Virus genome (UHGV): UHGV-0195027
Source: a virus
Length of the DNA: 17,600 nt
Direction: 5' to 3' (one strand)
This document shows, in pieces, positions 3,959 to 6,516 of this stretch. Below the pieces are notes generated by a model. That model ran no database searches. It was not told the DNA's origin and saw only the letters and a list, made by a program, of their open reading frames with translations. Each line of letters begins with the position of its first letter. The stretch's first letter is position 1. The translations under genes and the position numbers were made by a program.

Positions 3959-4139
3959 TGAAAGGAGATCACTCAATAACTTCCATCGAGATCGGGTAAT
4001 AACATTTGAACAGATCGCTGAATAACATCGATGGAGATCACTTTTGACTCATTTTGTTATTCAGTGATCTCCATCAATGTTATTGGAACTTCACAGGTGT
4101 GTTGATCTGTATCTTTTGCCATTCCGGTAAAGGATACCT

Positions 4140-5681
4140 ATGCCAACAGTTCCAATTTCTATGAGAAAACTTAAAGAAATTCTTAGGCTTAAATACGGTG
4201 TTGGACTCAGCCATCGACAAATTGGTCGTAGTCTTGCAATCTCCCCTTCCGTTGTATCCAGATATGCTAATCGGGCGGCTCAACTTGGCATAAAGCAGTG
4301 GCCCTTACCTACAGGATGGGATGATACAAAACTAAAACATGCGTTCCTTCAGACCCAGGTTAAGATGAAGAAGCACTCTCTGCCTGACTGGGCTACAGTA
4401 CACCGGGAACTGCGTAATAAATGCGTGACGCTGCAGCTACTCTGGGAAGAATACTGTGAGCGTAATCCAGGCGGTTTTTACAGCTATAACCATTACTGCC
4501 GGATGTACCGTGAATGGCTCAAAACCACTTCACCATCAATGCGTCAGGTACATAAAGCTGGCGAAAAACTTTTCGTTGATTACTGTGGACCTACCGTTGG
4601 CGTTACCGACCCTGAGACCGGAGAAATAAGAACTGCTCAGGTCATCGTAGCTGTTCTCGGGGCATCAAGTTACACATGGGCAGAGGCCACCTGGTCTCAG
4701 CAGCTTGAAGACTGGGTGATGAGTCATGTTCGCTGCTTCCAGTGGTTGGGTGGCGTTCCTGAACTTGTTGTTCCGGACAATCTGAAAAGCGCCACATCCA
4801 GGGCATGTAAGTATGATCCTGACGTTAACCCTACCTACCAGCAGATGCTTGAGCATTATAATGTCGCAGTTTTGCCTGCGCGGCCACGTAAACCGAAAGA
4901 TAAAGCCAAAGCTGAAGTTGGCGTTCAGGTTGTTGAACGCTGGATCATGGCCCGAATCAGGCATGAGATCTTCTACAGCCTTGCATCGCTTAATCAGCGC
5001 ATTCGGGAGTTGCTGGAAAGACTGAATAACAAAATAATGCAGAAGTTGGGTTATTCACGTGCAGAACTCTTCATCCAGCTTGATAAACCCGCACTGAAGC
5101 CTCTTCCTGAAGCCAGTTACAGTTACACCCTGGTGAAGAAAGTCAGAGTTCATGCCGATTACCACGTGGAAATCGACAAACATTACTACTCGGTTCCATG
5201 TTCGCTGTTAGGCCAGCAACTGGAAGCATGGATCTCCGGAGAACTGGTAAGACTCTTCAATCAGGGGCAGGAGGTTGCTGTGCACCCGCGCAAGCGTACT
5301 TATGGCTACAGTACCCGCAACGAGCACATGCCTGAAGCTCATCGACAGCATGCCACCTGGACGCCAGAGCGTCTTCTGGAATGGGCGGGGCACATAGGCA
5401 GTGAAACTCATAGTTATGTGCTTCATATACTGAACTCTCGTCCACATCCGGAACAAAGCTATCGCTTCTGCCTTGGACTCCTGAACCTTCATAAAAAATA
5501 CAGTAAAGCCAGACTTAATGCAGCATGTGCAAGAGCTCTGAAAACAAAGGTATGGCGTCTGTCAGGTATTAAATCGATCCTGGAAAAAGGTCTGGATAAA
5601 CAACCTGTTCAGGATCCAAAACCAGATCTGTTATCCACGATGGAACACGAAAACGTACGCGGCAGTGAGTATTACCACTGA
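4140..5681 (+). CDS. istA: IS21-family transposase IstA
   Basis: 513 aa with N-terminal HTH (GLSHRQIGRSLAISPSVVSRY) and a DDE-type catalytic core region; immediately followed by istB. Confidence 0.9.
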   Translation: MPTVPISMRKLKEILRLKYGVGLSHRQIGRSLAISPSVVSRYANRAAQLGIKQWPLPTGWDDTKLKHAFLQTQVKMKKHSLPDWATVHRELRNKCVTLQLLWEEYCERNPGGFYSYNHYCRMYREWLKTTSPSMRQVHKAGEKLFVDYCGPTVGVTDPETGEIRTAQVIVAVLGASSYTWAEATWSQQLEDWVMSHVRCFQWLGGVPELVVPDNLKSATSRACKYDPDVNPTYQQMLEHYNVAVLPARPRKPKDKAKAEVGVQVVERWIMARIRHEIFYSLASLNQRIRELLERLNNKIMQKLGYSRAELFIQLDKPALKPLPEASYSYTLVKKVRVHADYHVEIDKHYYSVPCSLLGQQLEAWISGELVRLFNQGQEVAVHPRKRTYGYSTRNEHMPEAHRQHATWTPERLLEWAGHIGSETHSYVLHILNSRPHPEQSYRFCLGLLNLHKKYSKARLNAACARALKTKVWRLSGIKSILEKGLDKQPVQDPKPDLLSTMEHENVRGSEYYH

Positions 5682-5692
5682 TACGGGATCCA

Positions 5693-6442
5693 ATGATGAA
5701 TCATCTTTACGAACAACTGACCGCACTTAAACTCACCGGCTTCCGTGATGCGCTTAAAAAGCAACTTGCTCAGCCGGGCACATACCAGGAGCTGGGCTTC
5801 GAAGAACGCCTGTCATTACTGACAGCAGAAGAACTAACCTGCCGTGAAAACAGGAAGGCAGAGCGTCTGATCAAACATGCACGGTTCAGACTTAATGCTG
5901 AGTTATCAAAGCTGGATTATCGTAACAATAGAGGGCTGGACAGGGCCCTCATCCGTTCACTCAGTCAGGGAAACTGGTTAACCCTGAAACAAAATATTTT
6001 ACTGACCGGGGCCACCGGCAGCGGTAAAACGTTCCTGGCATGTGCACTTGGTCATAATGCCTGCCGACAGGGATACAAGGTCTACTATTATCGCCTTAAA
6101 GCGCTGATGGAACAGTGCTATCAGGGGCATGCTGATGGAAGATACAGCAAACTTTTGACCAGGCTGAATAATAGCGATCTGCTGCTTCTGGATGACTGGG
6201 GGCTGGAACCTCTCTCATCAGAACAGCGTAGCGACCTGCTGGAAATAGTGGATCTGATGTACCAACGAGGCTCAATCATCGTAGTGAGCCAGTTGCCGGT
6301 GGAAAACTGGTACAAAATGATCGGAGACTCCACACATGCGGATGCCATCCTAGATCGACTGGTTCATGGCAGTATCAAGATCGAACTTAAAGGAGAATCA
6401 ATGCGGAAAATACAATCTCCGTTGACCGAAGGAGATCAGTGA
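5693..6442 (+). CDS. istB: IS21-family ATP-binding helper IstB
   Basis: 249 aa with Walker A motif LLTGATGSGKTF and Walker B-like LLLLDDWG; starts 12 nt after the istA stop. Confidence 0.9.
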   Translation: MMNHLYEQLTALKLTGFRDALKKQLAQPGTYQELGFEERLSLLTAEELTCRENRKAERLIKHARFRLNAELSKLDYRNNRGLDRALIRSLSQGNWLTLKQNILLTGATGSGKTFLACALGHNACRQGYKVYYYRLKALMEQCYQGHADGRYSKLLTRLNNSDLLLLDDWGLEPLSSEQRSDLLEIVDLMYQRGSIIVVSQLPVENWYKMIGDSTHADAILDRLVHGSIKIELKGESMRKIQSPLTEGDQ

Positions 6443-6516
6443 AGGTAATTTAAAAACGGTTCTGTGAAAGTGACACGAACCGATCTCCATCGATGTTACT
6501 CACCGATCTCCTTCAC

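Follow-up and report, generated by a model that had tools for sequence, protein, structure and literature searches.

When an insertion sequence (IS) lies between two different truncated genes and shows no target-site duplication, is it a simple insertion whose ends have been misplaced, or does it mark a joint at which unrelated pieces of DNA were brought together? The question is raised by a stretch of 17,600 nucleotides (nt) from the virus genome UHGV-0195027 (hereafter the window), in which an IS21-family element, ISEc12, separates a fragment of an AraC-family regulator gene from the 3' end of the tail-fibre gene H of a P2-like prophage. An original prediction, made from the letters of the window, had proposed an IS-mediated rearrangement. 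We find that the joint is real, and we think it quite likely that it is a recombinant ISEc12 joint, formed in a secondary, IS-dependent step that fused DNA of the IncF fae plasmid type to a P2-like prophage at the chromosomal gene fieF. Sequences used for comparison are labelled L001, L002 and so on; the coordinates of all features are collected in Table 1.

Identity and true ends of the element

The prediction had recognised an IS21-family element with intact istA and istB genes, and on this point it was right. The hallmarks of the family are present: consecutive genes for a DDE transposase (istA) and an AAA+ helper ATPase (istB), both identified by their Pfam domains, and TG...CA terminal inverted repeats with multiple motifs resembling transposase-binding sites (L1/L2, R1/R2). 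The left inverted repeat (IRL) reads TGCATATTTTCATGAAAGGAGATC, and the reverse complement of the right one (IRR) reads TGCGTATTACCGTGAAGGAGATC; the motif copies at the right end are spaced 23 bp apart, as are R1 and R2 of IS21 (PMC10122671). Copies essentially identical to this element occur by the thousand in Escherichia coli. A megablast search with 3959-6516 matched 1,760 of 5,426 complete E. coli genomes, many of them at 100%, the matched copies carrying the PGAP annotation 'IS21-like element ISEc12 family', and more than 1,300 of these genomes hold a PGAP-annotated ISEc12 that is 100% identical. Identity to the annotated copies is 100% over 2558 nt and 99.96% over the full 2581 nt. The istA product is RefSeq WP_001298859.1, judged by the annotation of identical copies; the open reading frame (ORF) of istB opens at 5693, which would give a product of 249 amino acids (aa), and its RefSeq start is at 5696. 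Set beside annotated ISEc12 such as the copy in tssM of the ST131 strain EC958, to which it is 99.96-100% identical over 2581 bp with the same istA/istB, TG...CA ends and terminal motifs, the window copy differs in having A rather than G at IRL position 4 and in joining unrelated contexts.

The element is longer than had been claimed, its proposed limits of 3959-6516 having cut off 12 nt at its left end and 11 nt at its right. Its ends were compared with those of simple insertions in L002, L004 and L005, and then with those of ten more ISEc12 copies. Twelve extra nucleotides at the left end (TGCGTATTTTCA, present in the window as the variant TGCATATTTTCA) move with the IS in every other copy, as do 11 extra nucleotides at the right end (GGTAATACGCA) in every other copy examined. 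Both breakpoints are exact to the base because IS-free alleles of the two interrupted genes are available: an intact AraC/GyrI allele (L019; complete plasmid p548a, L032) aligns exactly to position 3946 and continues with its own 5' part, and the intact H of L003 aligns from 6528, where it is preceded by ...GTTCGACTTG. The ends shared by other copies, together with the IS-free alleles, therefore place the element, intact and with TG...CA ends, at 3947-6527, a length of 2581 bp. The octamers tattttca and cggtaata, formerly read as flanking DNA, are both the tips of the IS itself. The true flanks read ...GAATATACG before the IS and GTTCACAGC... after it, and they share no direct repeat 3-10 bp long once the ends are corrected (AATATACG versus GTTCACAG); the claim that no target-site duplication exists thus survives the correction of the ends on which it had been based.

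The missing duplication says something about the insertion event and not about the element. Among 12 independent ISEc12 copies sampled from complete genomes, nine have duplications of 5-7 bp (5 bp in five copies, 6 bp in two and 7 bp in two), and the remaining three have no duplication and different genes on their two sides. An ISEc12 copy without a duplication is not rare. The copy in EC958 has a 5-bp duplication (PMC10711316), like five of the 12 sampled copies and unlike the copy in the window, and IS21 also generates a 5-bp duplication in vitro (PMC10122671).

The two sides of the element

The flanking genes had been described as an AraC-family helix-turn-helix (HTH) fragment on the minus strand to the left and a C-terminal tail-fibre remnant on the plus strand to the right. 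Both descriptions hold, the first being the remnant of a Rob-like AraC/GyrI regulator gene and the second the last 62 codons of H. The comparison with IS-free relatives that had been suggested puts the two flanks in unrelated genes, and no relative joins them. Since the flanks belong to unrelated genes in IS-free relatives and no duplication is present, the element marks a secondary rearrangement joint and not a simple insertion. The prediction had placed this rearrangement within the context of a prophage; the joint is indeed secondary, and what had not been foreseen is that its left side is plasmid-derived and brought the IS along.

Several comparisons bear on the origin of the left side. 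Window positions 1-6527, the IS included, are collinear at 99.8-99.9% identity with E. coli M10 plasmid A and with similar plasmids and contigs, downstream of a K88-like fae operon, and the full fae operon lies upstream in the contigs that carry the faeI-like segment. The only matches to window 2300-3958 at 80% coverage or more in the complete E. coli genomes are five plasmids, and no chromosomal copy of the left segment at high identity and coverage was found in them; in PLSDB, seven E. coli plasmids match window 1-3946 at 99% identity or more. M10 plasmid A types as conjugative, IncFIB/IncFIC and MOBF. By these sequence relationships, the left flank is plasmid-derived DNA and not chromosome adjoining the prophage.

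The plasmid copies of ISEc12 share with the window the exact left junction with the truncated AraC/GyrI gene. In M10 plasmid A (CP010201), pYZLc4-1_138k, pEC21Z048-116K and p79-13-647d, this junction is identical, A3950 included, and the upstream 3.9 kb are 99.8-99.9% identical to the window. On the plasmids, an IS66-family fragment lies to the right of the IS, either directly or after an IS3 element, whereas in the window the right neighbour is the 3' part of H; position 4128 is C on the plasmids and T in the window. The plasmid copy, too, lacks a target duplication, and is itself found (L001, 10228 onward; L029-L031) at a joint of the truncated AraC/GyrI gene, the IS and the IS66-family fragment. 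At least one earlier ISEc12 rearrangement therefore preceded the event seen in the window. The far-left border of the fae operon is an IS91 orf121-like gene (L024, 1-324; also L018, L021, L022 and L027), and when L024 is followed leftward from fae, the next gene is this IS91 orf121-like repeat, with closest database proteins that are 94% identical. Mobile elements are hence present on both sides of the plasmid-type segment, which could therefore have moved as a fragment and not as a whole plasmid.

On the right side, the translation of the H remnant is identical to the C-terminus of H in L003, an intact P2-like prophage at the fieF-pfkA locus, and window 6528-17600 aligns to this locus at 98.2% identity without gaps. 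The prophage part is 95-97% identical to the Peduovirus genomes R18C, P24B2 and P2 (95.9% for R18C), and the late tail genes follow the order H-G-(cargo)-FI-FII-E/E'-T-U-D-ogr, as established from Pfam matches and the annotation of collinear loci. The window does not amount to a complete P2-like genome with integrase, replication, head, lysis and baseplate genes and a full H, as all that it contains of the prophage is the 62-codon end of H and what follows rightward, with the IS and plasmid-type DNA to the left. A look-up of the tail-fibre assembly protein led to genomes of which the longest, those that were read, have an intact H.

Reality of the joint

Whether the junction might be an assembly artefact was examined with independent contigs, recovered by exact look-up with two proteins, the tape measure and the product of the 313-aa plasmid-type ORF. 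Two MEGAHIT contigs from ENA, L006 (ERZ27289280) and L012 (ERZ27289270), carry the same succession of truncated AraC/GyrI gene, ISEc12 and 3' part of H (AraC'-ISEc12-H3') and continue into chromosomal genes. L006 has one mismatch to the window in 15,984 nt and runs on through fieF, pfkA, sbp, cdh and tpiA to fpr; L012 has none in 11,242 nt. Plasmid DNA is joined to the chromosome through the IS in the window, in L006 and in L012. A further contig from Logan (L007, SRR2938147) begins 30 nt within the right end of the IS and enters H3'. The flank haplotype of the window lineage (901A, 1623A, 2248C) is common to scaffold L024, which comes from another study, and is absent from all plasmid-context sequences.

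The presence of the same joint in independent contigs argues against an artefact of assembly and favours a single IS copy. As the contigs were built with k=141 and pass unbroken across the 2.6-kb IS, we infer from the behaviour of the assembler that in those samples the IS had a single neighbour on each side. The AraC'-ISEc12-H3' joint is, in our judgement, real.

Formation of the joint

How, then, could such a joint have come about? The left end of ISEc12 still has its plasmid neighbour, the truncated AraC/GyrI gene, and its right end abuts H at codon 663. The joint would have been made in a second IS-dependent step, subsequent to the original insertion, in which plasmid-derived DNA and its IS replaced everything to the left of the breakpoint in H. 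As end state we consider most likely a single ISEc12 at a deletion-type joint, with the left arm of the prophage gone from this place. The AraC/GyrI gene and gene H are both dead as a consequence, and the prophage remnant, from G to ogr, is unable to form particles. The prediction had taken the left arm (head, lysis, baseplate and most of H) to have been removed; the window by itself cannot show such a loss, but a real loss is likely, favoured indirectly by the contigs that follow a single path through the IS.

Two routes to this end state can be put forward, and they are not separable on the evidence presented here. Homologous recombination between the ISEc12 of the plasmid lineage and a second ISEc12 inserted in H would have, by our estimate, slightly less than an even chance of being the route taken. 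Transposition of the IS21 type, either by intramolecular attack on H or by cointegration followed by deletion, we advance more tentatively, as a possible route; an intramolecular attack would leave an adjacent deletion with one remaining IS. ISEc12 does occur in the tail genes of P2-like prophages elsewhere, and in two strains it interrupts H at a point 331 bp upstream of where the window's copy meets the gene, with a 5-bp duplication.

The known tail insertions of ISEc12 are of a different kind from the joint in the window. In APEC 102026 and 2020N21-246 (gene H) and in 2023CK-01509 (a lysogenic-conversion gene), the IS keeps both halves of its target and is flanked by duplications of 5 bp (GGGGA) or 7 bp (CCATGAG), neither of which features the window shares. 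Across the P2-like tail regions of several unrelated strains, we note independent ISEc12 insertions in a lysogenic-conversion gene, in H and beside a tape-measure gene (L002, 9330-11910; L004 and L005, 4682-7262). These repeated insertions may reflect a target preference of the element or a simple tolerance of insertions in prophages.

Two positions within the IS might be expected to distinguish the routes. Position 3950, in the left inverted repeat, is A in the window (TGCA...) and G in all 12 other sampled copies (TGCG...), and A3950 is found in every copy that adjoins the truncated AraC/GyrI gene, whether of the plasmid or of the window lineage. Position 4128 is T in the window, which is the consensus type, and C in 13 of 13 plasmid-context copies. 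This mosaic of A3950 and T4128 would fit a crossover somewhere in the leftmost 181 bp of the element, as judged from the sequence of the copies compared. The likelihood ratio that we would assign to the mosaic is estimated at less than 2, and it does not decide between recombination and transposition.

A number of points weigh against the sequence of events proposed above. An early-branching plasmid lineage that had not acquired C4128 explains the mosaic equally well; the mosaic consists of two sites, and the window lineage has three private single-nucleotide polymorphisms in its flank. The simple insertion of ISEc12 at the exact site in H, which homologous recombination would need as its substrate, was not found in the complete E. 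coli genomes, though this absence carries little weight, as the right junction is missing from them too. That the IS is present in a single copy is deduced from assembler behaviour and not from reads, and the independent contigs, with their close ERZ accessions, may come from one strain or cohort. Finally, the far end of the plasmid-derived segment has never been seen; the attached plasmid DNA may be more or less extensive, and the left arm of the prophage may survive elsewhere in the genome.

Alternative explanations

The locus bears a likeness to the formation of high-frequency recombination (Hfr) strains and to replicon fusions of the IS21/R68.45 type, in that one IS is shared by a conjugative plasmid and a chromosome and the orientation fits one of the junctions of a cointegrate. 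It is therefore pertinent to ask whether an intact, Hfr-type cointegrate is present, in which the whole IncF fae plasmid lies inside H between two directly repeated copies of ISEc12. Such a structure would have originated in a single crossover between plasmid and chromosomal ISEc12 or through the tandem, or 'cointegrase', pathway of IS21; the left arm of the prophage would then be displaced by about 115-140 kb and not deleted, and the window would be the right-hand junction. The orientation is as predicted for that junction, with IRL next to the plasmid and IRR next to the target, and the donor plasmid type is conjugative IncF. Fusion of replicons by tandem IS21 copies is familiar from the R68.45 literature. 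Such fusion and a cointegrase isoform have also been described for the IS21 family (PMC10122671).

Against an intact cointegrate stands the behaviour of the assemblies. A second ISEc12 would constitute a repeat with two paths in and two paths out, at which de Bruijn contigs of k=141 should break, but L006, L012 and the window cross both ends of the IS. The locus differs from known Hfr and IS21 fusions in that neither a second junction nor another IS copy was found; the assemblies suggest a single-copy product from which the rest was lost. A pattern scan for the reciprocal junction (the 5' part of H, 4-8 bp and IRL) returned zero matches in IMG/VR and the JGI metagenomes, and a BLAST search of the 5,426 complete E. 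coli genomes with a synthetic reciprocal junction found no place covering both halves. This absence carries little weight and is in itself uninformative, because the right junction is missing from the same collections, with zero matches in IMG/VR, the JGI metagenomes and the GTDB representative genomes and none in the complete genomes. Taken together, we regard the intact cointegrate as improbable.

We consider it very improbable that the window is an assembly chimera, in which a plasmid carrying the truncated AraC/GyrI gene, ISEc12 and the IS66-family fragment was misjoined, through the shared 2.6-kb repeat, to a chromosome with ISEc12 in H. The suspicion is not without grounds: the whole window was not found in any one of the complete E. 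coli genomes, the matching contigs come from short-read metagenome assemblies, and L011/L021, an apparent intermediate haplotype, stops exactly at the right end of the IS, as would be expected where several right flanks coexist. L011/L021 is probably the product of collapsed reads from multiple IS copies. A chimera would, on the other hand, have to have formed identically at least twice more, in the independent assemblies L006 and L012, which differ from the window by zero or one mismatch. It would require the high-depth branch to be the plasmid on the left and the chromosome on the right, which a uniform plasmid depth should forbid. The haplotype of the window (901A, 1623A, 2248C, 4128T) is distinct from those of all 13 plasmid-context sequences, and the window is therefore not just a known plasmid glued to a chromosome. 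Moreover, the substrate that a chimera needs, ISEc12 at the exact site in H, is in no genome that we found. A simple insertion whose duplication was overlooked, for which the ends mis-delimited by 12 and 11 nt did offer an opening, can be dismissed for all practical purposes, as no 3-10 bp repeat exists at the corrected ends and the IS-free flanks belong to unrelated genes. We also considered, and rejected as unlikely, a primary F-prime plasmid with fieF, pfkA and further genes, since the chromosome would then have to have lost its own copy of core genes.

Other features of the locus

The AraC/GyrI remnant comprises a GyrI-like part (3228-3629) and an HTH part (3675-3946). The first 51 codons of the gene were lost at the IS, and there is also a nonsense mutation at 3675, where the window has T and the intact p548a allele, which encodes 290 aa, has A. 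Relatives vary at 3478 by a short tandem insertion of the CTG(A) type in the same gene.

The products of the 128-aa and 313-aa plasmid-type ORFs gave no match to Pfam or PADLOC. The 128-aa ORF contains an (ACTAAT)n microsatellite at 963-989, the copy number of which differs among relatives, and the assemblies L006, L012, L013 and L015 stop at most about 25 nt from it. In the 313-aa ORF, a 105-bp repeat unit is present in about 1.5 copies (1472-1631), with several more in related plasmids and contigs, and the products of its relatives, annotated or called, range from 348 to about 660 aa. Its product resembles a coiled-coil protein that may be secreted or lipoprotein-like, and the ORF adjoins the fae operon.

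At the other end of the element, an ORF of 83 codons (6464-6715) has a GTG start within the right end of the IS and continues, in the same frame, through the H remnant. It is skipped by gene callers, and an exact look-up of its protein found none on record. Within the prophage, the 92-aa and 230-aa cargo products had no match in Pfam or PADLOC, and the slot between G and FI is filled differently in other P2-like prophages; that of L002, for instance, encodes a 'lysogenic conversion protein'.

Table 1. Features of the window, with positions counted from its first nucleotide.
Feature	Position	Strand	Basis or remark
faeI-like K88/F4 minor fimbrial subunit gene, 3' end	1-381	+	Aligns collinearly with faeI on E. 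coli M10 plasmid A and on plasmids related to it
Two plasmid-type ORFs, 128 aa (881-1267) and 313 aa (1267-2208)	881-2208	+	Microsatellite; variable 105-bp repeat region
IS3-family integrase-core remnant	2425-2577	-	RefSeq annotation of collinear plasmid L001; many IS3 matches
Rob-like AraC/GyrI regulator pseudogene	3228-3946	-	Pfam HTH_18/HTH_AraC, GyrI-like
ISEc12, complete, corrected ends	3947-6527	+	12 other copies have this length and these ends; both breakpoints set by IS-free alleles
Left terminal inverted repeat region, repeated IstA-site-like motifs	3947-4084	+	Starts TGCATATTTTCATGAAAGGAGATC; A at 3950, usual base G
istA, transposase, 513 aa	4140-5681	+	Pfam rve and Mu-transpos_C_2
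istB, AAA+ helper ATPase, 248 aa from RefSeq start	5696-6442	+	Pfam IstB_IS21, E=2e-67
Right terminal inverted repeat region	6461-6527	+	Direct repeats 6482-6498 and 6505-6521; ends ...GGTAATACGCA
P2-type tail-fibre gene H, 3' remnant, last 62 codons of 724	6528-6715	+	Intact H of L003 reads ...GTTCGACTTG followed directly by GTTCACAG...
Tail-fibre assembly gene, P2 G-like	6717-7244	+	Pfam Caudo_TAP, E=1e-35; L003 annotation
Variable cargo between G and FI: 92-aa ORF (-), DUF3606 ORF (-), 230-aa ORF (+)	7465-9159	both	
P2-like tail arm: FI sheath, FII tube, E/E', tape measure T, U, D, ogr	9419-16021	+	Pfam in L006; L003 annotation
Chromosomal fieF, directly right of prophage end	16257-17159	+	L002/L003 annotation; Pfam Cation_efflux in L006

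Implications

ISEc12, the mechanics of IS21, IS-mediated deletion and IS-mediated fusion of plasmid and chromosome are all known, and the joint described here is an ordinary example of them. That IS copies at recombination or deletion joints lack a target duplication is textbook knowledge. The main lesson of the locus concerns the way in which annotation errors originate at the ends of an IS, and the IS-free alleles that settle where those ends are.

For the bacterium, the joint ties the chromosome to DNA otherwise seen solely on conjugative fimbrial plasmids of the IncF type, and a P2-like prophage is inactivated. We regard it as unlikely, though a prospect worth keeping in view, that a gut E. 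coli lineage has stably integrated an IncF K88-like plasmid, or a large part of one, through ISEc12 at the fieF prophage, in a natural Hfr-like or plasmid-capture state that would then have been encountered repeatedly in metagenomes. If much of the plasmid did integrate, the locus would be a case of natural plasmid capture or Hfr formation and of a K88-like adhesin operon becoming fixed in the chromosome. The adhesin operon of a plasmid, and possibly an oriT, would then reside there, a situation that is known in principle and that would be relevant to those who track the lineage.

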